From the UHGV virus genome UHGV-0110229: a stretch of 53,808 nucleotides of DNA. One strand, 5' to 3'. The stretch's first letter is position 1. Each line of letters opens with the position of its first letter. Under the pieces are notes generated by a model, which saw only the letters and a program-made list of their open reading frames with translations, was not told the origin of the DNA and searched no databases. The translations under genes were made by a program, and so were the position numbers. Origin of the DNA: a virus. Of this stretch, positions 9,012 to 50,024 are shown piece after piece.

Positions 9012-9659
9012 ATGAAAACAAAATGGTATGACTTGGCAAAACAACTCATGCGGGCGCAGGGCATGAGTCAGGATTCACTGGCTGATCTCATGGGGATAAC
9101 AAAAGGCGGCTTGTCGCACTGGCTGAACGGTCGCCGTGAGCCAAATCTTGAAGATATTGCGCGGATCATGCGGGCGCTTGGGCGTCGGCAATTCACTGTC
9201 ACACATGATGGGATGGTCATCGATGATTCTGTTTCTAACACGTTACCGGGAGCGCCACCGCGTGATTTAGGCAGTTACCCGGTTGTTGACTGGAAGGACG
9301 CAGTAAACAATATGGAAGATGCAAGGCGATCAACATTACCACACGTTACAACTAGCGTTATTTGTTCTGATGATAGTTATTGGCTGGTAGCTAAAGGCGA
9401 ATCAATGAACGCTCCGCAAGGATTGAGTATACCAGCGGGGACGATGATACTTGTCGATCCGCACGCGCCAGCTATTGACGGCAAACTAGTTATAGCCCAA
9501 CTGGAGGAAGGGCAAACTCCTACGTTTAAACAGCTTGTTATTGATGGAGGTCAAAGGCTTTTACGTTCACTCAATCCGCTGTATCCACCGATCCCTATGA
9601 ATCCAGAATCTAAAATCATAGGTGTGGTAGTGGATGCGAAGATCGTAAACCTGCCATAA
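9012..9659 (+). CDS. cI: CI-type prophage repressor (HTH + S24 LexA-like autopeptidase)
   Basis: 215 aa; N-terminal HTH (QDSLADLMGITKGGLSHWLNG); C-terminal S24 motifs (AKGESM Ser, later Lys). Confidence 0.85.
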   Translation: MKTKWYDLAKQLMRAQGMSQDSLADLMGITKGGLSHWLNGRREPNLEDIARIMRALGRRQFTVTHDGMVIDDSVSNTLPGAPPRDLGSYPVVDWKDAVNNMEDARRSTLPHVTTSVICSDDSYWLVAKGESMNAPQGLSIPAGTMILVDPHAPAIDGKLVIAQLEEGQTPTFKQLVIDGGQRLLRSLNPLYPPIPMNPESKIIGVVVDAKIVNLP

Positions 9660-17193: not shown

Positions 17194-17290
17194 AATTTAC
17201 AAAATGGCGTCATTGCGTGATGTGGATCACATAATGGCGCTTTTTACCTTGTTCTGACGTATCCATTTTGTATACTTCAAACAAGCAAAA

Positions 17291-17325
17291 TGCTCTTTAA
17301 AAATCCGGCAGCGCTGAAATGCGTA
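17291..17325 (+). promoter_or_regulatory. Internal nut-like site (boxA + weak hairpin) upstream of the ninF/ninG-like genes
   Basis: TGCTCTTTAAAAATCCGG then CGC-TGAAAT-GCG; the 17-mer GCTCTTTAAAAATCCGG is identical to the leftward nut-like site. Confidence 0.4.
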
Positions 17326-17352
17326 GAAATCACCTGAAAAGGAGAGAGCATT

Positions 17353-17529
17353 ATGCCTTTTGATAATTACCAATGGCATGACGACTATGAACGAGAAAGC
17401 GTCATGCGTGCAATGTGCAATGTATGCAGCACGAAGAAAGGAGACTGCAACGAGTGCAACGAATGTTTAGATCATTGGCTAAAGGCCGGACACGCCGAAA
17501 GGCTGAACGAAACAGAGAATCAAAAATAA
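17353..17529 (+). CDS. Small Cys-rich protein (NinF-position)
   Basis: 58 aa MPFDNYQWHDDYERESVMRAMCNVCSTKKGDCNECNECLDHW..; strong RBS GGAGAGAGCA; just upstream of ninG. Confidence 0.35.
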   Translation: MPFDNYQWHDDYERESVMRAMCNVCSTKKGDCNECNECLDHWLKAGHAERLNETENQK

Positions 17530-37751: not shown

Positions 37752-40091
37752 ATGGCTACCAGTTTAGGTACAATTTATTACGAAGTCGATGCAAAAACTG
37801 GTCAGCTTCTTGTCGCTCAACGACAGGCAGACCAGGCTTTTGACAGTATAGAACGCGGCGCAAAACGTGCTGACCGCCAGGTAAACACACTGAAGACATC
37901 AATCAAAGCACTGTCCAGGGTTATACATCTGCTACTTGCCGCAGAGGCTGTACGCCAGTTTATTGACATGGCGGAGCAAGCAAAAATGCTTCGCGTAAAA
38001 ATCAAAATGCTTACTGGTGATGCAGAGGTCGCAGGACGTGTTTTCGATGGCCTGAAAGAAATATCAAAAGAAACCGGGCAAAGCCTGAAGGATACTGGCG
38101 AACTATGGCAAGGCCTGGCTATCTCACTGAAGAACACGTCAGCTACGGATGGTCAATTGCTTAACCTGGTTGGCACGATTCAAAAGATGGGGGCGTTAGG
38201 CGGCGCGTCAGCGGAACAGATGTCTAATTCTATGCGCCAGTTCCGCCAGTCTATAGACGGTGGCGTTCTTCGTGCCGAAGAGTTTAACAGTCTGCTTGAA
38301 AACACGCCGACCATCGTACAGACAATGGCCCGCCATATGGGGTTGTCAATGGGTCAGTTCCGCGCCGAAATGCTGGACGGCAAGATCACGGCTGAAAGGA
38401 TGGTTAACGCGATCCAGGCAGCTACACAGGAAACAAACGAGAAGTTTGCACAGTTGCCTCGCACATCCGGCAAGGCTATCAATGAGCTTAAAGTAGAGGT
38501 GATGGGGCTTGTTGAGCAACTGGATGATCTTTTCGGTGTATCAGATGGCGTTGTGTCAGCTATCGACCTAATAACTGGCGGCGTTGAGGGATTAGGTAAA
38601 GGTGCAAAATTCGCCGCAACCTGTTTCAATACACTCAAAACCGCTGGCAGCGAGTTTATAGACATGTTTGACGACGTTGCTGTTAAAGCTGGTGAGGTGG
38701 CGGAAGAGATTATCAGGATGGTAACGCCAATAAAAGCGCTAATGGATGGCTACAAATGGATGAAGGAGATCATTGATAAACGCAAGGAAGAGCTAAACAG
38801 CAATAACGAGAAGAAATTCGGCCCCACCATTGGCAAATTCATGACGTTTAAGAATGACATCGAAAAAGCAACTGCCGCTTATGATGAGTTCATGCAGAAA
38901 CAGGGTGAGGCTAACGATGGCAAGATCACCGGATTCGATCAGCCAGTTGGTAAGCCGAAAAAACCGAAAAAACAAAAGAAATCTGAAGCTGATCGGCTTG
39001 GTGATGAAGGTATAAAAGTGTCCGACCAGTACAACAAGGACGCCGCCGCTATGCGTAAAGCACTGGAGAACGGCAAGGCCATTGATGCTGCATTCGCCCA
39101 GGGAAAAATAACCCTCCTTGAGTACAAGGCCGCGCAGAAAGGGATAGGTAAGGAACTGAAGGACGAATTGGCCCAAATCCCGGTGGAAGAATTGCAAGAC
39201 AAATGGGCGCACATAGTAAGCCCAATGGATCAACTTAAGGGCGAAATTGACCCCATCAAACAGGTGCAGAATGAGTGGGCCGTCAAAAAACAAATGCTGA
39301 TAGACCTGGGCGCTACAGAAGCGCAACAGAAACAGGCGCTTTTGGAATATGAGCAACAGATACGAGATCTGAAGTGGGAACAATGGCAGGCGCAAAGCGA
39401 CACGAATAGCCTAATCGGTGCTTGTGTTAGTGGCCTAAAAGGTGGCATGGGTAATGCGCTCACCGGCCTGTTAAACGGTACTCAATCATTAAGCGAGGTT
39501 TTCGCCAACCTGGGAAGCAGTATCCTCAATACCGTTGGCAACAAACTATCAGAGATTGCCGCTAACTGGATAGCAGATCAATTGATGATGGAAACGCAAA
39601 GCAAGGCTACCCAGGCAAGTACAACTGCTGGCGCTGTGGCGGCGCAAGGTCAGATTGCTGCGGCGGCGGCCCCGGCTGCGGCTGCAACGGCTGCGTCAAC
39701 TGGTGGTAGCTGGGCTGCGGCTGGTGCTGCGGCACTTTCTGCGATCATGTCGCTGGCAACATCAATTTTTGGCGGCGGGCGTTATAATGGTGGTTCTGTA
39801 AATGGTGGCAGCCTGTATCGCGTAGGGGAACACGGGATTCCTGAGTTATTCCAGACGAGCAACGGGCGTCAGTATATGATTCCTGGGGAAAATGGCAGGG
39901 TTATTCCTGGCCGCGATCTCTTCAATGGTGGCGGCATCAATATGCCTGTTAACATCACAGTACAGACCACAAACGGATTTAGCGACGAAGACGGTCGCAG
40001 ACTTGAACAGACGATGGAACGCGTAGCAATGAAAATGATGGCAAGGGAATCGCAACGACCGGGAGGAATGTTGCAACCGCGCCGCAAATAA
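37752..40091 (+). CDS. Tail tape measure protein
   Basis: 779 aa; long helical Q/A/K-rich protein with Gly/Ala-rich hydrophobic stretch near C-terminus; position in tail operon. Confidence 0.8.
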   Translation: MATSLGTIYYEVDAKTGQLLVAQRQADQAFDSIERGAKRADRQVNTLKTSIKALSRVIHLLLAAEAVRQFIDMAEQAKMLRVKIKMLTGDAEVAGRVFDGLKEISKETGQSLKDTGELWQGLAISLKNTSATDGQLLNLVGTIQKMGALGGASAEQMSNSMRQFRQSIDGGVLRAEEFNSLLENTPTIVQTMARHMGLSMGQFRAEMLDGKITAERMVNAIQAATQETNEKFAQLPRTSGKAINELKVEVMGLVEQLDDLFGVSDGVVSAIDLITGGVEGLGKGAKFAATCFNTLKTAGSEFIDMFDDVAVKAGEVAEEIIRMVTPIKALMDGYKWMKEIIDKRKEELNSNNEKKFGPTIGKFMTFKNDIEKATAAYDEFMQKQGEANDGKITGFDQPVGKPKKPKKQKKSEADRLGDEGIKVSDQYNKDAAAMRKALENGKAIDAAFAQGKITLLEYKAAQKGIGKELKDELAQIPVEELQDKWAHIVSPMDQLKGEIDPIKQVQNEWAVKKQMLIDLGATEAQQKQALLEYEQQIRDLKWEQWQAQSDTNSLIGACVSGLKGGMGNALTGLLNGTQSLSEVFANLGSSILNTVGNKLSEIAANWIADQLMMETQSKATQASTTAGAVAAQGQIAAAAAPAAAATAASTGGSWAAAGAAALSAIMSLATSIFGGGRYNGGSVNGGSLYRVGEHGIPELFQTSNGRQYMIPGENGRVIPGRDLFNGGGINMPVNITVQTTNGFSDEDGRRLEQTMERVAMKMMARESQRPGGMLQPRRK

Positions 40092-40097
40092 ACAAAA

Positions 40098-40125
40098 CCC
40101 CGGTACAATGCCGGGGTTATCTTTT
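40098..40125. terminator. Bidirectional rho-independent terminator
   Basis: CCCCGG-TACAATG-CCGGGG flanked by A-run upstream and TTATCTTTT downstream. Confidence 0.6.
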
Positions 40126-40300
40126 AGTTATTCTCAAAACTTGTATATCCTCTTTCAATTTTCCCTCCGTGTACACTTCTGGCAAATACCGCGTCAGTAT
40201 ACCTGAAAAATGGGCATGTATATGTATCCCCTTTACTATCCATATATTTTAGCACCCACGCCATACGTTTTACGTTGCTTTTATTTGCCGGGTTTTTCAT
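40124..40300 (-). CDS. Moron B gene 4, hypothetical (58 aa)
   Basis: MKNPANKSNVKRMAWVLKYMDSKGDTYTCPFF..; GGAGG RBS. Confidence 0.3.
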   Translation of the reverse strand: MKNPANKSNVKRMAWVLKYMDSKGDTYTCPFFRYTDAVFARSVHGGKIERGYTSFENN

Positions 40301-40318
40301 TTTATTTTCCTCCGCAAA

Positions 40319-40411
40319 TCACAATCTTCCGTTTCTTGCTACATAGCTGCGAGCAAACATCACCTGCCAGATGTTCCAGATCTCCCTCCAGGTGAATTTA
40401 TCGTCATCCAT
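40319..40411 (-). CDS. Moron B gene 3, hypothetical (30 aa)
   Basis: MDDDKFTWREIWNIWQVMFARSYVARNGRL; GAGGTGA RBS. Confidence 0.25.
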   Translation of the reverse strand: MDDDKFTWREIWNIWQVMFARSYVARNGRL

Positions 40412-40419
40412 ATTTCACC

Positions 40420-40674
40420 TCATTTATGTGCCCCTTTTACGCCACAGTGGCGGTTGTATTCCAGATGGTCAATAATTAACCACATCTTTAGATCTTCGCT
40501 GAATAACCGCCAATCGGGGTTGATGTCAAATTTATAACCGTAGCCATCGCGTAATTTTTTGGGGTTGGCCTCTTTTTTCAGGAAAGCATTTAATAAAGCC
40601 TTGCCTTTTTTGATGATCCGTTCCTGGGCGTTTTTCTGTGCTTTCAGGTTTTTGCCAATCATTACCAATTTCAT
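40420..40674 (-). CDS. Moron B gene 2, basic 84 aa protein
   Basis: Lys-rich; 20 nt downstream of gene 1. Confidence 0.4.
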   Translation of the reverse strand: MKLVMIGKNLKAQKNAQERIIKKGKALLNAFLKKEANPKKLRDGYGYKFDINPDWRLFSEDLKMWLIIDHLEYNRHCGVKGAHK

Positions 40675-40694
40675 AACTCACCCCACGCAATCAA

Positions 40695-40850
40695 TCAGTT
40701 GACCACTTTCAGGAAGAAATCACGGTATTCATCTTCTTTTGCATTCATCATAAATTGACCGTATTTGAATGCATCATCAAAACCCTTCACAATCGCAACT
40801 TCCACCTGTTCGAATGCTTTGTTTAGCATTACCACTACATAGCGTTCCAT
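40695..40850 (-). CDS. Moron B gene 1, acidic 51 aa protein
   Basis: MERYVVVMLNKAFEQVEVAIVKGFDDAFKYGQFMMNAKEDEYRDFFLKVVN; GGAGG RBS. Confidence 0.3.
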   Translation of the reverse strand: MERYVVVMLNKAFEQVEVAIVKGFDDAFKYGQFMMNAKEDEYRDFFLKVVN

Positions 40851-40891
40851 ATTGGCCTCCTTTGTTGGTGCTGCTTTCTCTTCTTGATTTC

Positions 40892-40920
40892 TATATACAT
40901 CTTGTCACGTCATGTGTGAA
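40892..40920 (-). promoter_or_regulatory. Sigma70-like promoter for moron B (reverse strand)
   Basis: On the minus strand TTCACA-17 nt-TATATA; a plus-strand TATAAT at 40939-40944 may drive gpM. Confidence 0.4.
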
Positions 40921-41019
40921 GCCGTTTTGTAAACTGGGTATAATTCTTGTGACAAAGTTCTCATTTTTCGCGTAGAAGCGCGTAAAGATGTATGCAATAT
41001 GTAACTTATAGGGGGAATC

Positions 41020-41373
41020 ATGCCGGAAGTTTTCAGATGGACGCCGCAAAGAAGCTACAGCGTGACCAGGGAACCAAATGTGTCAGTCGTTAAACTTGGT
41101 GATGGTTATGAGCAAAGGCAGGCAAAAGGTATCAACACATTACTTGATAGCTACACCCTGGTTTTTAAAGGCAGTAGCGCAGGATGCGGTGATAGCGGGA
41201 ACGTAGCGATCCAGGCGGAAGCATTCTTGAGGGCGCGCGGCGCTGTCGAGGCTTTCTACTGGACGCCGTCGATGGATAGGGTGCAAAGGCTTTTCGTTTG
41301 CCGTAGCTGGAGTATGACTAAGGACGGACCTGTGTACACGCTAAACGCAACGTTTGAACAAGTTGTTGGCTAA
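41020..41373 (+). CDS. M: Minor tail protein M
   Basis: 117 aa; resembles lambda gpM as recalled (FRW, GDGYEQR, ..FEQVV C-terminus). Confidence 0.75.
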   Translation: MPEVFRWTPQRSYSVTREPNVSVVKLGDGYEQRQAKGINTLLDSYTLVFKGSSAGCGDSGNVAIQAEAFLRARGAVEAFYWTPSMDRVQRLFVCRSWSMTKDGPVYTLNATFEQVVG

Positions 41374-41570: not shown

Positions 41571-41576
41571 TAACAA

Positions 41577-41600
41577 CCCCGCTTCTCGCGGGGTTTTCTT
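41577..41600. terminator. Rho-independent terminator (shared by plus ORF and moron C)
   Basis: CCCCGC-TTCTC-GCGGGG followed by TTTTCTT. Confidence 0.6.
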
Positions 41601-41749
41601 GTCAGTAGTTAATGTAAATCAAACTCATTGGGTGAGCGTGCGCCATATTATTGGCTATCGCCGCCCAATCCCAATCAGCAGCGTGAACGCCAAATACTAT
41701 AAGTCCCATTATTATTAGCGCCAAAACTTCTATTTTCATAATCTGTCAC

Positions 41750-41998
41750 CTATAAGTTATCACGCAGATAATTAACGCCCTTATCAGTGACGAATGAATG
41801 GTTAACCTGGTTTTCATCCGTCATGATGATGAATAACTTTTCCTGTAGGTATTTCGCTTTTGGGTACAGTGTTAAACAGACTTGATACAGTATCCCGCGC
41901 TCAATCAGCAAATCAATAAATTCGTGTTCATGATAACCGATGAGGCGGGCGGCCTGTTTCAACGTGTACACATAATCGCCGTGATTGCGCCGCCCCAT
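41750..41998 (-). CDS. Moron C gene 3, 82 aa protein with possible HTH
   Basis: Segment TLKQAARLIGYHEHEFIDLLIERG resembles an HTH. Confidence 0.4.
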   Translation of the reverse strand: MGRRNHGDYVYTLKQAARLIGYHEHEFIDLLIERGILYQVCLTLYPKAKYLQEKLFIIMTDENQVNHSFVTDKGVNYLRDNL

Positions 41999-42007
41999 GT
42001 TGCCGCC

Positions 42008-42358
42008 TTATTTATCGAATGCGCCCAGGTTATCTATGCAGAAATCTTTTGCCGCTTTTTCGTATTCGCGTTTTGCTTGCGGATCGTCTGCCGGGAAACC
42101 TTTTGCGTGTATTTCACCAGGGCAAGACTGATCCATAGAGTCAGCAAGGTTAACATTGACATTGAAATTGACATCTTTCGGGTTCATCTCTTCCACCTTA
42201 TCCGGTACTTGTACTGGAACAACATAATAATAACGAGCATTAGACCAACAGCGCAGTAATTCACGACCTTCATCACACGCTGATTCATATGTATCAAATA
42301 GCCCCATGCGTTCCCATTCGTATTTATCAGTCCACACGTCTAATCTGTATTTTTCCAT
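42008..42358 (-). CDS. Moron C gene 2, 116 aa hypothetical protein
   Basis: ORF with Cys and aromatic residues; no family recognised. Confidence 0.4.
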   Translation of the reverse strand: MEKYRLDVWTDKYEWERMGLFDTYESACDEGRELLRCWSNARYYYVVPVQVPDKVEEMNPKDVNFNVNVNLADSMDQSCPGEIHAKGFPADDPQAKREYEKAAKDFCIDNLGAFDK

Positions 42359-42373
42359 TTTTTGTTATAACCC

Positions 42374-42559
42374 TCATTTGACAGGTTCGATCCTGTACCC
42401 CAAAACGCGTTCGTCTTCAGCGAGTAAGAGCGCGTCGGTAAGTGCCTCGCCTTCATCTTTATACAGGGCCACAGTCATTTTCCTGCCATCCGCAAGGAAC
42501 ACCGTCAACCTCCACACCTTGTCATCCATTTCACACCTCCGCGCCATTTTGTTAACCAT
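42374..42559 (-). CDS. Moron C gene 1, 61 aa hypothetical protein
   Basis: Start at MVNKMARR (ATG 42559..42557) downstream of promoter with AAGGAAG RBS; track ORF extends to 42616. Confidence 0.4.
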   Translation of the reverse strand: MVNKMARRCEMDDKVWRLTVFLADGRKMTVALYKDEGEALTDALLLAEDERVLGYRIEPVK

Positions 42560-42575
42560 GCTTCCTTTTGAGTAC

Positions 42576-42604
42576 AATATACATATTGTAAAAAACGCGA
42601 TCAA
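42576..42604 (-). promoter_or_regulatory. Sigma70-like promoter for moron C (reverse strand)
   Basis: Minus strand TTGATC-17 nt-TATATT; adjacent direct repeat TGATTTAG x2 at about 42616-42633. Confidence 0.45.
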
Positions 42605-42657
42605 CCGTTTTGGCATGATTTAGCGTGATTTAGATCACAAAATGACAAGGTGATAAA

Positions 42658-43362
42658 ATGCGCAGCATACCTACAGAAATGATTATTGATTCCGTGGATG
42701 CCGGAGTCGGCGCGGTCATTGACTTATTTGAACTGGACCTCACGCCCCTGGGTGGCGAGGTTATCCGCTTCCATTCCGGCGCGAATGGTTATTACGGCCC
42801 TGTTATCTGGAAGGGATTGGCTTACAACAGCTACCCAATCGAGGCTACCGGCTTCGAAATGAAAAACGAAGGCGTTTACTCACGCCCCCAAATGGTCGTA
42901 GCCAACATTGGCGGCCTAATCACTGGGATGAATAACGATTTTAACGACCTGCGAGGAATGAAGGTTACGCGCCGCCAGGTGGAAGTAAAATACCTGGATG
43001 CTGTTAACTTCCCCAATGGCAACCCGGATGCAGATCCGTCTATCGAGGCGGTATCTTTTTACGTCGTTGAGGCGATGAGCGAAGAAACAGCCGACCAGGT
43101 GCAATATGAACTGTCAACGCCAATTGATGCTGACAAGGCTGTTATCCCTGGGCGCACAATCCTCGCTGACGTTTGCCAGTGGCAATATCGCGGCGACGGT
43201 TGCAGATACAGTGGCGGCCCTGTAGCCACTGACAAAGACGAGCCAACCAGTGATCCGAAGCTGGATAAATGCAGCCACCGCCTGAGCGGTTGCCGTTTGC
43301 GATTCCCGCGCCCGAATCCGTTACCGATTTCATGTTTCCCCGGATCAAGTAAGGTCGGTTGA
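42658..43362 (+). CDS. L: Minor tail protein L
   Basis: 234 aa; strong resemblance to lambda gpL as recalled including the C-terminal Cys cluster. Confidence 0.8.
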   Translation: MRSIPTEMIIDSVDAGVGAVIDLFELDLTPLGGEVIRFHSGANGYYGPVIWKGLAYNSYPIEATGFEMKNEGVYSRPQMVVANIGGLITGMNNDFNDLRGMKVTRRQVEVKYLDAVNFPNGNPDADPSIEAVSFYVVEAMSEETADQVQYELSTPIDADKAVIPGRTILADVCQWQYRGDGCRYSGGPVATDKDEPTSDPKLDKCSHRLSGCRLRFPRPNPLPISCFPGSSKVG

Positions 43363-44582: not shown

Positions 44583-47500
44583 ATGAGTAGCGGCGGCGGC
44601 AAAGCCAAAACACCAACATTATTAAACGATAACCTGTTTCATAAACAGTTTTATCGTGTTTTGGACATTCTCAGCGAAGGCCCAATCTACGGCCCTGTAA
44701 ACCAGAAAGCGCCATTAAACAGCGTAATGCTTAATGACAGCCCAATCACTGACGCCAACGGCGGCACATCGGTCCCTGGCGTTAGCGTGGCGTGGCGTAA
44801 TGGTACGGCTGACCAGTCACCAATCAACGGCTTCAACGCCATTGAATCAACCGTTATTGTTAACGCAAAAGTGACTCACGATACGCCAATAATCAGGACT
44901 GTTTCAGATCCAAACGTTAACCGCGTAAGGCTGAATCTTGGCGTTGATTCTCTGGTTCAGTCAGATGATAAGGGCAATCAATACAATACATCTGTTGTGT
45001 TGATGGTTGATGTTAAGCCATCATCGTCAACAACGTGGTCACTGGTCAAAGATATTACCATTGGCCCTGGTAAACAAAGCGGCGAGTATATGGAAGCGCA
45101 CATCATCCAAGCGCCGGATGAAAAACCGTTTGATATTCGCGTTCGTCGCGTAACGCCAGACAGTAAAAGCGATCTACTTCGCAATGACACCAGGTGGAGC
45201 AGTTACAGCGAGATAATAGACGATAACTTGTCTTATCCCCATACCGCTGTAGCAGGCGCGGTAATTGACCACGATCAGTATACCGACACGCCGACACGCA
45301 CCTATCACATGCGCGGCCTGATTGTTGACGTGCCTGATAACTACGACCCGGAAACACGCACATACTCAGGTTTATGGCTTGGTGGCTTCAAAAAGGCATA
45401 CACCAACAACCCTGCATGGCTTTTCCGGTATCTGGTGAAAAATGAACGCTTCGGGCTTACCCGCCACGCCGGTTACATTGACGTTGATGATGGCGCATTA
45501 TATGTGCTTTCTCAATACTGCGACCAGTTGGTAAACGACGGTTACGGCGGCCTTGAACCACGCATGACGCTTAACGCTTACATCACTGAGCAAATTAGCG
45601 CCCGCGACTTGCTGGACAACATTGCAGGCATGTTCCGTGGTATCGCGTTATGGGACGGGCAGCGCCTTACGGTGATGATTGATGCACCGCAAGATCCAAT
45701 TGCCACCATCACGAATGCAAACGTCGTTGATGGCGCATTTACTCGTTCAAGTATCGCCCGCGCGGAATCTTACAACGCTGTGATTGTGTCATGGACTGAC
45801 CCGGAAAACGGTTGGGAACAATCAAAAGAATACGTAGCAGATGATGAACTGATCGCCCGCGATGGTTACAACGAAACCACTTTGGAGGCTTTTGGTTGCA
45901 CGTCACGCGGGCAGGCGTACCGCGCTGGCAAATGGCTGATAGAAACAGCAAAACGCGAACCCTCAAAATTCACGTTTAAAATGGCCCGTGACGCGATTCA
46001 CTTCACCCCAGGGGATATTATCGAGATACTCGACAATAACCGCGCTGGCGCTCGTTTAGGTGGTCGCATCGTGGCGAATAACGGGAAAGTGATAACCGTA
46101 GACAAGGTTGATTCTGACCTGGTGGCGGCTGGTGACACTATCAGCTTACTGGACAGCGACGGTAAGTTTAAAAAACATCAGATCACTGGGGTTAACGGAA
46201 ACAATATTACCCTTGCGGCAGCGCCCGCATGGATTCGTAACGGAACCGTATTTGCCGTTTCAACTGAATCCGCAAAACCTGTTCTGTGCCGAATTACCAG
46301 CGTAGCGGAAACCGAAAATAACAGCGTGTACACCATTGAGGCTGCACAGCACGATCCTCACAAACAGGCTGTAGTTGATGAAGGCGCAATCTTCGAGGTA
46401 AACAACGACACGCTTAATCACTTCCGCGTGCCGAACATTGAAAATCTGAAGGTGTTAAATGTTGGTTCTGAAACTGTTCAATGTCGCGCAACATGGGAAA
46501 CACAGACGACAACGCATCGCCTGACCTTTGAAATCCGCGTATATAACACCGAAGGCCGCATTGTGGCAACTTATGAAACCACGAATTACCGCTATGATTT
46601 TTATGGCCTCGACGCTGGCAGCTACACGCTTGGTATTCGCGGGCGTAATGACACTGGCATGAAGGGTGCGGAAAGTATTGTAGACCTGGTTATTGGTGCG
46701 CCAGCGGCCCCGATTGGAGTCAATTGGGTTCCAGGTGTCTTCCAGGCAACGGTATATCCGATCAGCAAAACAACCCTTACCACTGATACGGCATATGATT
46801 TCTACTACTCAGGTGAAAATCAGATCACAGATCCATCAAAAGTAACCACGCTGGCGCAATTCACCGGGCGCGGCTACCAATGGACTTTTGGCGGTATGAA
46901 TACGGGACACACTTATTACGTCTATGTGCGCACGCGTAATGCCTTTGGTGTGTCAGACTTCGTTGAGGCATCAGGTAAACCGACTGAAAACTTCGACGAA
47001 ATCAGCGACTACGTGATGAAGGATGTCATGGAGTCAGAACAATTCAAGGACATGATTGGCGACATTAAAGATCTTGGCGACCGTGCCGACCTTATCGAAA
47101 GCGCTACAAATGACCTTAAAAACGCTACTGACAACCTCAAAACTGCAACTGACACCCTGACAAACGTCACTGACGAATTGAGGACTGATACTGACAACCT
47201 GACAAACATCACTGAGGATTTAAGGACTGACACTGACAGCTTAATCACAGAAACAGGAGTCATAAAAGCTGACACGGACACACTGAAAAAAGAAACGGAA
47301 GATCTCTACAAAAAAGTTAAAGAGAACGCCGATGATATTGGTCAGCATGAGTCCAGAATCGACTTATTAGAAGTGTCAAGCGAAAAAGTTGACAGCGAAC
47401 TGGCGCAGGCAAAAGCAAGCCTGCAAAACGCTTCATTGGCGCTTATCAACAACTCGCTTGCACAGACAAACACGCGCGTAACCCTTACCGCCCAGTATAA

Positions 47501-50024
47501 GAAAGGCATGACGGAAACGAAAGCGGAAATTGACCGTATTGACAACGTTATCGCTGAAGAGAAAAAAGCGACAGCGGAATCACTGGAAACCATCACGGCA
47601 GAAATGAACACGATGGATTCCAACCTTAAAGGTCAGATTTCCAGCGTGGAACGTGCAGTGGCTGACGAGGCCAGCGCACGCGCCGAAGCTATTAACGGTG
47701 TGAACGCCTCAATAGACAATCTCGACAAGAAAACTGACGCCAGCGTTAAACGTCTGGACCAGGCAATCGCCGATGAATCGAGCGCGCGCACCCAGGCTGT
47801 CAGCGACGTTAACGCAAGCATTTCAGCACTTGACAAGAAAACTGACGCCAGCGTTAAACGCCTTGATCAAGCTATTGCAGACGAAACAAGCGCACGCGCC
47901 GAAGCTATCAATGGGGTAAATGCCTCAGTATCAGCACTTGATAAGAAAACCGATTCAAGCATAAGCCGCCTTGATAAAGCTATTGCCGACGAAACGAGCG
48001 CGAGAACCGAAGCCATCAATGGTGTGAAGGCATCAATCTCCACACTTGACGGCAAGGTAACAAGTAACGTTAATCGCCTTGATAAAGCTATTACAGACGA
48101 AACTAAGGCACGCACTGACGCTATCAGCAGCGTTAATGCAAGCATCAGCACGCTTGAAAGCAACACTGAATCAGAGGTGAACAGACTCGACCAGGCCATC
48201 GCTGACGAGGCCAGCGCACGCGCACAGGCCATCAGTGGCGTGAAGGCATCGATAGACACCCTTGATAAGAAAACAGACGCCAGCGTTTCCCGTCTTGATA
48301 AAGCGATAGCAGACGAAACTCAGGCAAGAAGCGCCGCAATAACAGATGTTAAGGCTGATTTGACAACGCTCGAAAACAGCACAAACGCCAGCGTCAAACG
48401 CCTTGACCAGGCGATTGCTGACGAATCAAGTGCCCGCGCTGAAGCAATATCAGGCATTAACGCAGAGATCGGCAGCATCGAAAACAACGTTGACAAAAAC
48501 AGCGATGATATAAATCAGACCAAAGCAAGCCTGCAAAACGCTTCATTGGCGCTTATCAACAACTCGCTTGCACAGACAAACACGCGCGTAACCCTTACCG
48601 CCCAGTATAAGAAAGGTCGCAAGGAAACAAACGCGCAGATTGATCGTATTGACAGTGTTATCGCTGAAGAGAAAAAGGCTACAGCCGAAGCAATTGGCGT
48701 GGTAAAAGCATCGATCACCGATCTTGACAAGAAAACAGACGCCAGCGTTTCCCGCCTTGACAGAGCGATTGCAGACGAAACAAGCGCACGCAGCGAGGCT
48801 ATCAGCGGCGTGAACGCATCAATTTCCACCATTGATAGTAATGTGAAAAGCAATATTACCAGGATGGATAAGGCTATCGCCGACGAAACAAAAGCACGCG
48901 CAGACGCAATAAGCGGCCTTAATGCATCGCTTACCAGTACGATCACCTCGAAAGTATCTGAGGTATCAACGGCACTGGCTACGCATGAGGAATCAAGCGC
49001 TGAAAAATTCAGCCAGATCTCAGCGTCATTCGAACTAGTAGACGCAAGTATCACTGAATGGTCGCAGGCGATGGCTACGGCTGACGAGGCGTTATCAACG
49101 AAAATCGATCAGCTAACAGTGACCGTTAACGGGAATAAGACGGCAATAGAAACGACATCTAAAGCATTGACCGACTTCAAGGGCAATGTTGATGCGTCGT
49201 ACTCTATCAAGCTGGCGACCGACAACAACGGAATGAAATACGCAACAGGTATGTCGCTTGGCCTCACTGGTGACGGCACTAACTTTCAGTCGCAGTGTAT
49301 TTTCCTTGTTGACCGTTTCGTGTTAATGACCGCAGCAAACGGCACATATACAACGCCTTTCTATGTCACCAATGGCGCAATGTATGTAAGAGAAGCGTTT
49401 ATTAAGGACGGAACTATCAACTCCGCCAAAATAGCTGATCGAATACAGTCAGTTAATTACAGCTGGGAAAACGGTACAGGATGGGCGATAGATAAAGCCG
49501 GTGACGCAGTATTTAACCAGGTAACCGTAAGGGGTACGGTATACGCTTATGCTGGTGTGTTTAACGGTACTGTTTACGCAACTGGCGGTAAATTTACTGG
49601 AGCAGTTGAAGCTACAAGTTTTGTTGGTGACGTGGCAAGTATGTCAGTGATAAACGAGGATGTATTTCCGTCAATGAGGGGAAATGGCAGCAGGCGCGTT
49701 TCGAAAACTTATCTTGATTCAAGTTCATCAAGTTTATCAAAAACAGTTTACGTTATGATTCCGTATGATTTGTCATACCATACATATAGTGAATCTTCTC
49801 GCATCAATGTAACTATAAATATAAGCGGACACACAAAAACAATTAATATAGAAAGGCCAGCATCAGGCCAAGCAATGTCATCTGTCGCGGTGCACTGTGT
49901 ATCTGGCCTCACATACCCAACAATTACAGTCGAGGTGACGGAAAACTTTACCAATACATCTAATGCAGCAATAAGAAAACCAGGTTTAATACTTATAACA
50001 AGAAGTTCAGGAACATGGATATAA
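44583..50024 (+). CDS. J: Tail tip central fiber / host specificity protein J, extended with coiled-coil repeat region and distinct C-terminal domain
   Basis: 1813 aa; N-terminal part lambda J-like; then about ten 36-aa tandem repeats and a separate C-terminal domain. Confidence 0.85.
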   Translation: MSSGGGKAKTPTLLNDNLFHKQFYRVLDILSEGPIYGPVNQKAPLNSVMLNDSPITDANGGTSVPGVSVAWRNGTADQSPINGFNAIESTVIVNAKVTHDTPIIRTVSDPNVNRVRLNLGVDSLVQSDDKGNQYNTSVVLMVDVKPSSSTTWSLVKDITIGPGKQSGEYMEAHIIQAPDEKPFDIRVRRVTPDSKSDLLRNDTRWSSYSEIIDDNLSYPHTAVAGAVIDHDQYTDTPTRTYHMRGLIVDVPDNYDPETRTYSGLWLGGFKKAYTNNPAWLFRYLVKNERFGLTRHAGYIDVDDGALYVLSQYCDQLVNDGYGGLEPRMTLNAYITEQISARDLLDNIAGMFRGIALWDGQRLTVMIDAPQDPIATITNANVVDGAFTRSSIARAESYNAVIVSWTDPENGWEQSKEYVADDELIARDGYNETTLEAFGCTSRGQAYRAGKWLIETAKREPSKFTFKMARDAIHFTPGDIIEILDNNRAGARLGGRIVANNGKVITVDKVDSDLVAAGDTISLLDSDGKFKKHQITGVNGNNITLAAAPAWIRNGTVFAVSTESAKPVLCRITSVAETENNSVYTIEAAQHDPHKQAVVDEGAIFEVNNDTLNHFRVPNIENLKVLNVGSETVQCRATWETQTTTHRLTFEIRVYNTEGRIVATYETTNYRYDFYGLDAGSYTLGIRGRNDTGMKGAESIVDLVIGAPAAPIGVNWVPGVFQATVYPISKTTLTTDTAYDFYYSGENQITDPSKVTTLAQFTGRGYQWTFGGMNTGHTYYVYVRTRNAFGVSDFVEASGKPTENFDEISDYVMKDVMESEQFKDMIGDIKDLGDRADLIESATNDLKNATDNLKTATDTLTNVTDELRTDTDNLTNITEDLRTDTDSLITETGVIKADTDTLKKETEDLYKKVKENADDIGQHESRIDLLEVSSEKVDSELAQAKASLQNASLALINNSLAQTNTRVTLTAQYKKGMTETKAEIDRIDNVIAEEKKATAESLETITAEMNTMDSNLKGQISSVERAVADEASARAEAINGVNASIDNLDKKTDASVKRLDQAIADESSARTQAVSDVNASISALDKKTDASVKRLDQAIADETSARAEAINGVNASVSALDKKTDSSISRLDKAIADETSARTEAINGVKASISTLDGKVTSNVNRLDKAITDETKARTDAISSVNASISTLESNTESEVNRLDQAIADEASARAQAISGVKASIDTLDKKTDASVSRLDKAIADETQARSAAITDVKADLTTLENSTNASVKRLDQAIADESSARAEAISGINAEIGSIENNVDKNSDDINQTKASLQNASLALINNSLAQTNTRVTLTAQYKKGRKETNAQIDRIDSVIAEEKKATAEAIGVVKASITDLDKKTDASVSRLDRAIADETSARSEAISGVNASISTIDSNVKSNITRMDKAIADETKARADAISGLNASLTSTITSKVSEVSTALATHEESSAEKFSQISASFELVDASITEWSQAMATADEALSTKIDQLTVTVNGNKTAIETTSKALTDFKGNVDASYSIKLATDNNGMKYATGMSLGLTGDGTNFQSQCIFLVDRFVLMTAANGTYTTPFYVTNGAMYVREAFIKDGTINSAKIADRIQSVNYSWENGTGWAIDKAGDAVFNQVTVRGTVYAYAGVFNGTVYATGGKFTGAVEATSFVGDVASMSVINEDVFPSMRGNGSRRVSKTYLDSSSSSLSKTVYVMIPYDLSYHTYSESSRINVTINISGHTKTINIERPASGQAMSSVAVHCVSGLTYPTITVEVTENFTNTSNAAIRKPGLILITRSSGTWI
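47690..48940 (+). repeat. In-frame tandem 108-bp (36-aa) coding repeats within J, plus a 95-bp perfect direct repeat
   Basis: Repeat unit VNASIxxLDKKTDASVxRLDxAIADExSARxEAIxG about 10 times; identical 95-bp segment at 47412-47506 and 48522-48616. Confidence 0.8.

Follow-up and report, generated by a model that had tools for sequence, protein, structure and literature searches.

What is a compact block of opposite-strand genes doing inside the tail operon of a temperate phage, and do these genes form one system? The question is raised by the virus genome UHGV-0110229 (53,808 nucleotides, referred to as a whole as the window), in which tail genes M and L lie 1.28 kb apart. On the minus strand, the M-L gap carries four close-packed open reading frames (ORFs) separated by 15, 9, and 10 nucleotides (nt), which run antisense to the late tail operon. 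They encode, in order of transcription, the proteins g51, g116, KilAC82, and g45 (Table 1). An earlier note, made from the letters alone, had described three minus-strand genes in about 1.1 kb inserted between M and L, had placed none of the proteins in a recognised family, and had proposed an accessory moron and candidate defence system. We found that the core of the cassette is a fixed feature of its phage family and not a sporadic moron, because it was present in all of the 58 related cassettes compared, always in the same slot. Furthermore, the 82-amino-acid (aa) protein proved to be a stand-alone KilAC domain, a member of Pfam family PF03374. The cassette is not a recognisable defence system. 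Tentatively, we read it as a module that acts on the host by way of this domain.

Gene content and conservation of the M-L cassette

The window is a complete 53.8-kb genome of the mEp021/mEp010 ("mEpimmI") type of temperate Escherichia coli phages. Megablast comparisons with six mEpimmI phages and MagusPhagus gave 86-93% identity, at a coverage of 74-92% over the first 25 kb and of 88-100% over positions 39.9-43.5 kb. The order of the tail module (tape measure, M, L, K, I, J) is lambda-like, and according to Negrete-Mendez et al. (2025, PMC11893012) the group is a family of Nus-dependent, non-lambdoid siphoviruses that infect E. coli; "inserted" therefore expresses an analogy with lambda and not an event. 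Orthologous cassettes with 86-93% DNA identity occupy the same slot in mEp021 (genes 71-74), mEp010, mEp013, mEp044, mEp515, mEp554, and MagusPhagus (GenBank MH706966, PP180001-5, PP925836). GenBank labels their genes (mEp021_71-74 and counterparts) only as hypothetical or "putative antirepressor protein", and the mEpimmI paper gives no functional data on them (PMC11893012). 

For the comparison, 58 cassettes (50 of them distinct) were collected from annotated phages, E. coli genomes, IMG/VR contigs, and one Logan contig. In every one, a small gene came first, followed by a g116 homologue that has the C-terminal segment and by a KilAC gene, always in the M-L slot, and no relative was found in which M adjoins L. 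Conservation as a unit in related prophages, which the earlier proposal implied, was therefore borne out, and presence or absence among close relatives, as implied by the term moron, was not. By the moron criteria of Hendrix and colleagues, the cassette has a predicted, conserved promoter and a hairpin of its own; coming and going among close relatives is limited to g45 and to ORFs of 67 and 77 aa. Among the distinct cassettes, g45 was present in 31/50, the 67-aa ORF in 11/50, and an ORF of 77-93 aa in 5/50. The cassette was found in 34 of 5426 complete E. coli genomes, always on the chromosome and, in all nine cases inspected, in the context of this prophage. Similarly, a KilAC-like protein is listed as a core gene in the manual analysis of the mEpimmI paper (PMC11893012).

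The ratio of nonsynonymous to synonymous substitution (dN/dS), determined against 14 related loci, was 0.02-0.18 for KilAC82, 0.12-0.31 for g116, 0-0.31 for g51, and 0.06-0.29 for g45, compared to 0.02-0.11 for the tail genes M and L. Since these values show purifying selection, all four ORFs are genuine genes. The 116-aa and 82-aa products of the earlier note stand as described, and g45 is added as a fourth. Its first gene, of 61 aa, is shortened to 51 aa: several relatives have AGG, ACA, or GCG in place of the ATG at 42559, and the ATG at 42529 is kept in those with the same type of g51 gene. Furthermore, the PHROG match of the first gene is limited to residues 30-80 of the long ORF, and the coding sequences annotated there in GenBank measure 156 bp. 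The genes of g51, g116, and KilAC82 (41750-42529, minus strand) share one reading frame and are split only by the stops TGA..TAA and then TAA. Databases hold natural or artefactual fusions across these stops; P0048, from the divergent locus L019, is genuine, and P0040 is by its look a frameshift.

KilAC82 matched PF03374 with 29.9 bits (gathering cut-off 25.3; expect value (E) 7.4e-7) over profile positions 23-105 of 108, and the homologue of L019 scored 28.0 bits. With the C-terminal domains of antirepressors of the Rha/Ant type, from Vibrio, Cronobacter, Hafnia, and Stx phages, it shares 30-38% identity, and its own lineage is tight (seven clusters, 74-98% identity). The structure model resembles winged helices of the MerR/excisionase (Xis) type, in agreement with the helix-turn-helix that the earlier note had suspected in the last protein. 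The protein is not basic (isoelectric point (pI) 6.9, net charge ~0). Of the two motifs highlighted for CreP and P1 KilA, "AKxLxL" and "TxKG" (bioRxiv 10.1101/2024.01.05.574328), the latter is present as an invariant TDKG at residues 71-74, and the former only approximately as QAARLIG.

In g116, residues 1-50 are variable and form a beta-beta-alpha-beta domain modelled by AlphaFold2 (AF2) with a predicted local distance difference test score (pLDDT) above 90. Conservation is highest in residues ~60-116 (DSMDQSCPGEIHAKGFPADDP.AKREYEKAAKDFCIDNL), where C79, H84, and C107 are invariant, and the pLDDT of this part is below 60 apart from one helix at 93-109. Such a segment, conserved yet of low pLDDT in the model, probably reflects the pattern of a chain that folds on a partner. 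The g116 family comprised 52 clusters in an indexed search, all from E. coli or phage sources, and its profile retrieved only 11 of 1.84 billion protein representatives, namely the family itself and fragments. Fold searches with g116 returned generic matches and no specific fold, and a sequence search of solved structures with the 116-aa and 82-aa proteins gave nothing significant. A stand-alone relative of the C-terminal segment was found in P0109 (56 aa; profile E 5e-11), encoded at 4001-4171 of contig L015 among small ORFs. Its host is an unrelated metagenomic phage with a Mu-type portal, and no KilAC domain was detected in the neighbours tested.

The g51 family is confined to these phages (49 clusters). 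A profile comparison by hhalign aligned g51 with the N-domain of g116 collinearly over the whole domain (probability 61%, E 8e-5), and BLASTP gave no alignment between the two proteins; by these profiles, g51 is a probable paralogue of the N-domain. Both proteins are acidic (pI 4.5-4.7; g51 4.7). On E. coli RefSeq orthologues of g51, which is a soluble, acidic protein of 51 aa, PGAP has placed the label "transporter". No profile supports this name, and there was no NCBIfam or Pfam match, so that it looks like a propagated misannotation. The hydrophobic g45 begins with a signal-peptide-like N-terminus, MKIEVLALIIMGLIVFGVHA followed by AD, with the cleavage site between them judged by eye from the sequence. 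It occurs with two alternative C-termini and weakly matches phrog_15123, "membrane protein" (E 0.07).

Conservation divides the core into two halves. Mean pairwise identity was 94% for KilAC and 88% for the g116 C-terminal segment, which make up a conserved pair, and 66% for g51 and 59% for the g116 N-domain, which make up a variable pair. The latter two each fall into at least three sequence types, and in three distinct cassettes an unrelated 52-aa gene takes the place of g51. The types of g51 and of the N-domain are associated but reassort, with 34 distinct cassettes on the diagonal and 13/47 off it. A strict co-variation of these types had appeared perfect in the first 15 loci; it broke down with the 58 and was dropped as evidence of type-specific pairing. 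Both genes are replaced in L019 by one protein of 172 aa, P0048, which consists of a g51-like domain fused to a g116 homologue, a Rosetta-stone hint that g51 and g116 may work together. Neither the complete E. coli genomes nor IMG/VR, searched with a view to co-variation of KilAC and repressor, contained cassettes of the L019 type.

Regulatory signals and neighbouring genes

The sequence TTGATC-17-TATATT, given by the earlier note as a promoter, was located upstream of g51 and matches the sigma-70 consensus at 9/12 positions. Promoter-like sites of this kind numbered 9 in 3.1 kb, compared to 6.0 +/- 2.4 in shuffled sequences, so that the motif alone does no better than chance. The predicted promoter is credible because TTGAT(C/A/T)-17-TATATT is conserved in 55/58 of the related cassettes, and not on account of its motif score.

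Upstream of it lies a dyad of the type bound by the cyclic AMP (cAMP) receptor protein (CRP), TGTGATCTAAATCACG, which fits 14/16 core positions of TGTGA-N6-TCACA and whose arms we take to be the same as those of the lac CRP site. The pattern TGTGA-N6-TCAC occurs twice in the window, at an expectation of 0.3. Among the related cassettes its arms are intact in 56/58, and the six spacer bases take 15 forms; this combination of invariant arms and a varying spacer is the footprint that a binding site of dyad symmetry and CRP consensus would leave. In the divergent L019, the dyad is perfect, TGTGATCTGCATCACA. When the -10 hexamer is set to -12 to -7, the dyad is centred at -62.5 in the window, at -63.5 in 33 relatives, and at -61.5 in L019, distances that are counted from the predicted -10 and not from a mapped start. 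Class I CRP promoters have their site centred near -61.5, or near -71.5, -82.5, and so on. The second TGTGA-N6-TCAC site of the window (17217-17231) is intergenic (17194-17414). It is followed, after ~25 nt, by a promoter-like TTGTTC-16-TATACT and then by a small ORF whose start is at 17354, and it may belong to a second CRP-linked phage promoter.

A perfect 8+2+8 palindrome of 18 bp overlaps the -10 and is a candidate operator. It is present once in the window. Close relatives keep it, at times with a single mismatch, also when another gene stands in first place (L008, L014), and L019 lacks it. Two assignments were rejected: by inspection the palindrome does not fit the LexA box CTGT-N8-ACAG, and an operator shared with CI was ruled out by the lack of any further copy in the window.

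At the other end, the terminator that had been placed at 41577-41600 corresponds to a G+C-rich hairpin common to both convergent units. A terminator scan flagged it on the plus strand only, after M and orf65, where it terminates the M-orf65 unit; the minus-strand tail reads GTTATTAC, or TTGTTATT with the last two A-U pairs left outside the stem, which is a weaker U-tract. The mEp021 annotation gives the hairpin as a terminator on both strands, and it probably ends the cassette as well. An Rfam scan of the region gave no match to an RNA family. With its predicted promoter, ribosome-binding sites (RBSs), and hairpin, the cassette has the sequence signals of a self-contained opposite-strand transcription unit. 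Its antisense orientation to the late operon and its predicted sigma-70-type promoter make transcription from the prophage plausible.

Table 1. Positions of the M-L cassette, its signals, and other features in the window
Feature	Position	Strand	Remarks
g51, 51 aa, acidic	42374..42529	-	phrog_29559; ATG 42529, GGAGG 7 nt upstream
g116, 116 aa, acidic	42008..42358	-	phrog_38567
KilAC82, stand-alone KilAC/ANT domain, 82 aa	41750..41998	-	
g45, 45 aa, hydrophobic	41602..41739	-	own AGGTGA RBS; optional fourth gene
Predicted sigma-70-type promoter, TTGATC-17-TATATT	42604..42576	-	-35 at 42604-42599, -10 at 42581-42576
CRP-type dyad, TGTGATCTAAATCACG	42624..42639	-	TGTGA-N6-TCAC, upstream of predicted promoter
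Palindrome, candidate operator, TACAATAT-AC-ATATTGTA	42573..42590		overlaps -10
G+C-rich hairpin, AACCCCGC-TTCTC-GCGGGGTT	41575..41595		common to both convergent units
Tape measure gene	37752-40091		
Tail gene M	41020-41373		PF05939
orf65, 65 aa	41373-41570	+	phrog_3249; directly after M, late-operon direction
Tail gene L	42658-43362		PF05100
51-aa gene (H-M cassette)	40695-40850	-	phrog_29810
ParE-like toxin, 84 aa (H-M cassette)	40420-40674	-	PF24732, E 6e-12; preceded by 51-aa gene
30-aa ORF (H-M cassette)	~40319-40411	-	
58-aa gene (H-M cassette)	40124-40300	-	
Bidirectional hairpin closing H-M cassette	40096-40118		
CI-like repressor gene	9012-9659	+	HTH_3 and Peptidase_S24 domains

The gap between the tape measure gene and M (40096-41019) is likewise filled by a minus-strand cassette, which has the same orientation as the M-L cassette. 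From its sequence it looks like a toxin-antitoxin (TA) pair, with a ParE-like toxin, plus extras. The content of this H-M gap differs among relatives, with an HNH endonuclease in mEp515 and a zinc-ribbon protein in mEp021. On the plus strand, orf65 was kept in all 14 loci compared (dN/dS 0.05-0.26), and we know of no counterpart between M and L of lambda. Farther downstream, the translation of the J-like tail tip gene (44583-50024, plus strand, 1813 aa) showed a long array of ~37-residue repeats in the C-terminal half (…DKKTDASVKRLDQAIADE.SAR.EAI.GVNASI…).

Possible functions of the operon

What KilAC domains do is suggested by experiments on distant relatives. CreP, a stand-alone KilAC domain of 103 aa, is bacteriostatic and makes cells of both E. 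coli and A. baylyi filamentous, and FtsZ co-precipitates with it weakly (bioRxiv 10.1101/2024.01.05.574328). In Gp07 of phage phi11, growth inhibition and filamentation of E. coli reside in the KilA-type C-domain (PMC5944126). The KilAC domain of Listeria AriS by itself suppresses the SOS response, probably via RecA, and two homologues do likewise; the phage-regulating activity of AriS belongs to its N-terminal AntA/B domain (PMC9043618). The label "antirepressor" goes back to P1 Ant and KilA, and it has not been mapped to the KilAC domain in any study.

By analogy with these proteins we lean, tentatively and with less than even confidence, toward a toxin-antidote-like host-modulation module, in which a CRP-tuned, prophage-expressed KilAC82 effector would be checked by two partners. 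The sigma-70 promoter would transcribe the operon in the lysogen, cAMP-CRP bound at the class-I-type site would stimulate it, and a factor on the -10 palindrome would damp it. KilAC82 would be the output of the operon and would act on host division or the SOS response, as CreP, Gp07, and AriS do. Its immediate neighbour g116 would neutralise or deliver it via the invariant C-terminal segment, for which disorder is predicted apart from one helix, and g51 would pair with the g116 N-domain or compete for it, thereby tuning g116.

In favour of this module we count the gene order, the division into conserved and variable pairs, the acidic partners, the P0048 fusion, and the nearby cassette with the ParE-like toxin. 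The layout is that of a type II TA system, with gaps of 15, 9, and 10 nt, one promoter, one hairpin, and an order kept in 58/58 cassettes. As to family, g51, g116, KilAC82, and g45 gave no toxin or antitoxin match in PADLOC, NCBIfam, or Pfam. For a neutralising antitoxin and a complex that would regulate its own operator, the pointers are indirect, namely the conserved C-terminal segment of low pLDDT and the palindrome over the -10. Several further observations weigh against the module. The likeness to CreP, Gp07, and AriS is at the level of the Pfam domain only, and the KilAC82 model resembles winged helices that bind DNA, so that a regulator in place of an effector is possible. Unlike typical TA or defence modules, the cassette was never found outside one slot of one phage family. 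No PADLOC model matches any cassette protein, which also leaves the earlier defence proposal without a counterpart among the known systems covered there. P0109 loosens the strict tie between the C-terminal segment and KilAC. A strict pairwise specificity of g51 and N-domain is unsupported, and adjacency alone could explain their association. Finally, in most relatives the CRP-type site lies 1-2 bp off the classical -61.5, relative to a start that is only predicted.

A more doubtful alternative is an antirepressor switch, in which KilAC82 would bind the CI-like repressor and thereby induce the prophage, with g51 and g116 as a gate and CRP as the link to carbon starvation. Its layout would be an analogue of P22 immI (mnt-arc-ant), which also lies among late genes. 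The repressor of the window has no Ala-Gly in the hinge between its two domains. Similarly, Rep021 lacks a cleavage site, and ultraviolet (UV) light does not induce mEpimmI lysogens (PMC11893012). An induction route that is independent of cleavage is needed because of these two properties, and KilAC82 is both the only antirepressor-family gene noted and a core gene. With 94% identity it is about as invariant as the single-immunity repressor (~96% similar), and the predicted promoter of its operon is accompanied by a CRP-type site and an operator-like palindrome. On the other hand, repressor binding has not been assigned to a KilAC domain by any experiment in the literature, homology to P22 Ant, Arc, or Mnt is lacking, and a fairly strong, CRP-activated sigma-70 promoter would risk frequent induction unless it were tightly gated. 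The full circuit, in which a CRP-activated KilAC antirepressor would make cAMP and carbon starvation, instead of DNA damage, the induction signal of mEpimmI phages, appears improbable. Literature on CRP-controlled antirepressors and on toxin-antitoxin morons in tail operons yielded nothing directly relevant.

Abortive infection or exclusion, in which the variable g51 and g116 N-domain would sense an invading phage and release KilAC to arrest the cell, seems rather unlikely. The unit is antisense to the late genes and would be expressed from the prophage, a ParE-like toxin cassette lies in the neighbouring gap, and the reassortment of g51 and N-domain types in an otherwise invariant cassette with optional genes that come and go is typical of conflict loci. 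CreP provides a precedent, as it acts in an abortive-infection-like way (bioRxiv 10.1101/2024.01.05.574328). Against this stand the missing PADLOC match and a cassette that does not move between contexts or phage families and is a fixed core instead of a variable island. Moreover, dN/dS of g51 and g116 (<0.31) gave no sign of positive selection in the pairwise comparisons.

We give still less credence to a damping of the SOS response as in AriS, whereby KilAC82 would inhibit the activation of RecA, quiet its own and co-resident prophages, and add to the lack of UV induction. The isolated AriS KilAC domain and two homologues do block the SOS response (PMC9043618), and mEpimmI lysogens are not UV-inducible, but the AriS data come from Listeria proteins with only the Pfam domain in common, the missing cleavage site of the repressor already accounts for the UV phenotype, and constitutive inhibition of the SOS response would be costly to the host. 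Similarly improbable is a KilAC82 that serves as the DNA-binding regulator of the operon at the palindrome, or as a recombination directionality factor, with g116 or g45 as effector: the palindrome stays unchanged when the first gene is swapped (L008, L014), as would fit a conserved binder, but KilAC82 is not basic, several proteins of the same fold bind proteins (e.g., CbpM, among the fold matches), and L019 has KilAC without the palindrome.

Comparison with known systems

Whether as a division- or SOS-blocking effector with antidotes or as a starvation-linked induction switch, the operon offers a compact and testable system. It is the only unit of the genome built around an antirepressor-family domain, is fixed in every member examined, and carries a clear CRP-type footprint. 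In E. coli from human faeces, phages of the mEpimmI group reportedly equal lambdoid phages in frequency. An analysis of the operon would reveal how a stand-alone KilAC domain acts and how proteins control it, and would give roles to two protein families without relatives or annotation.

The immI region of P22 (mnt-arc-ant) is a secondary regulatory operon among late structural genes, with a first gene of ~50 aa, an operator over the promoter, and an antirepressor-family gene. The M-L cassette shares these features of layout, but there is no homology in sequence or fold: Pfam and PHROG gave no P22_AR, Arc, or Mnt match, and the g116 N-domain, as well as g51 by its hhalign alignment, is beta-beta-alpha-beta, whereas Arc and Mnt are ribbon-helix-helix proteins. 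The cassette further differs from immI by its CRP-type site and by the lack of a divergent mnt promoter.

Three-component TA modules are a second point of reference. The prophage operon paaR2-paaA2-parE2 is small, with three genes of which the toxin is the last, acidic upstream partners, and a palindrome at the promoter; one of the upstream partners carries a disordered conserved segment. The cassette is alike in layout, in its acidic partners, one of them with a conserved segment predicted to be largely disordered, in the palindrome, and in the putative toxin at the end. Its components fall outside the known toxin and antitoxin families save by the analogy to CreP, and it is not mobile.

The putative effector itself resembles CreP of the Acinetobacter baylyi CrePA module. 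Like KilAC82, CreP is a single KilAC domain of ~80-100 aa with a TxKG motif, encoded by a tightly regulated gene. It differs in that it is repressed by the CRISPR-guided RNA CreA and has no protein partners, whereas KilAC82 has g51 and g116 as neighbours. Furthermore, CreP lies in the context of a cas operon and KilAC82 in a phage tail operon, and CreP is toxic to E. coli with filamentation, whereas KilAC82 is known here from its sequence and shares with CreP only the Pfam domain. AriS (Listeria phage phi10403S) and Gp07 (Staphylococcus aureus phage phi11) likewise have the KilAC/ANT domain in common with KilAC82, at their C-termini. They are two-domain proteins of ~250 aa with AntA/B or Bro-N N-termini and are encoded in early regions; in the stand-alone KilAC82, the separate proteins g51 and g116 may have taken the place of the N-terminal "regulatory" part. 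The cassette is best grouped with effector or antirepressor modules of the KilAC kind, in a form that is split into a stand-alone domain and two proteins unique to the family, apparently under the control of CRP.

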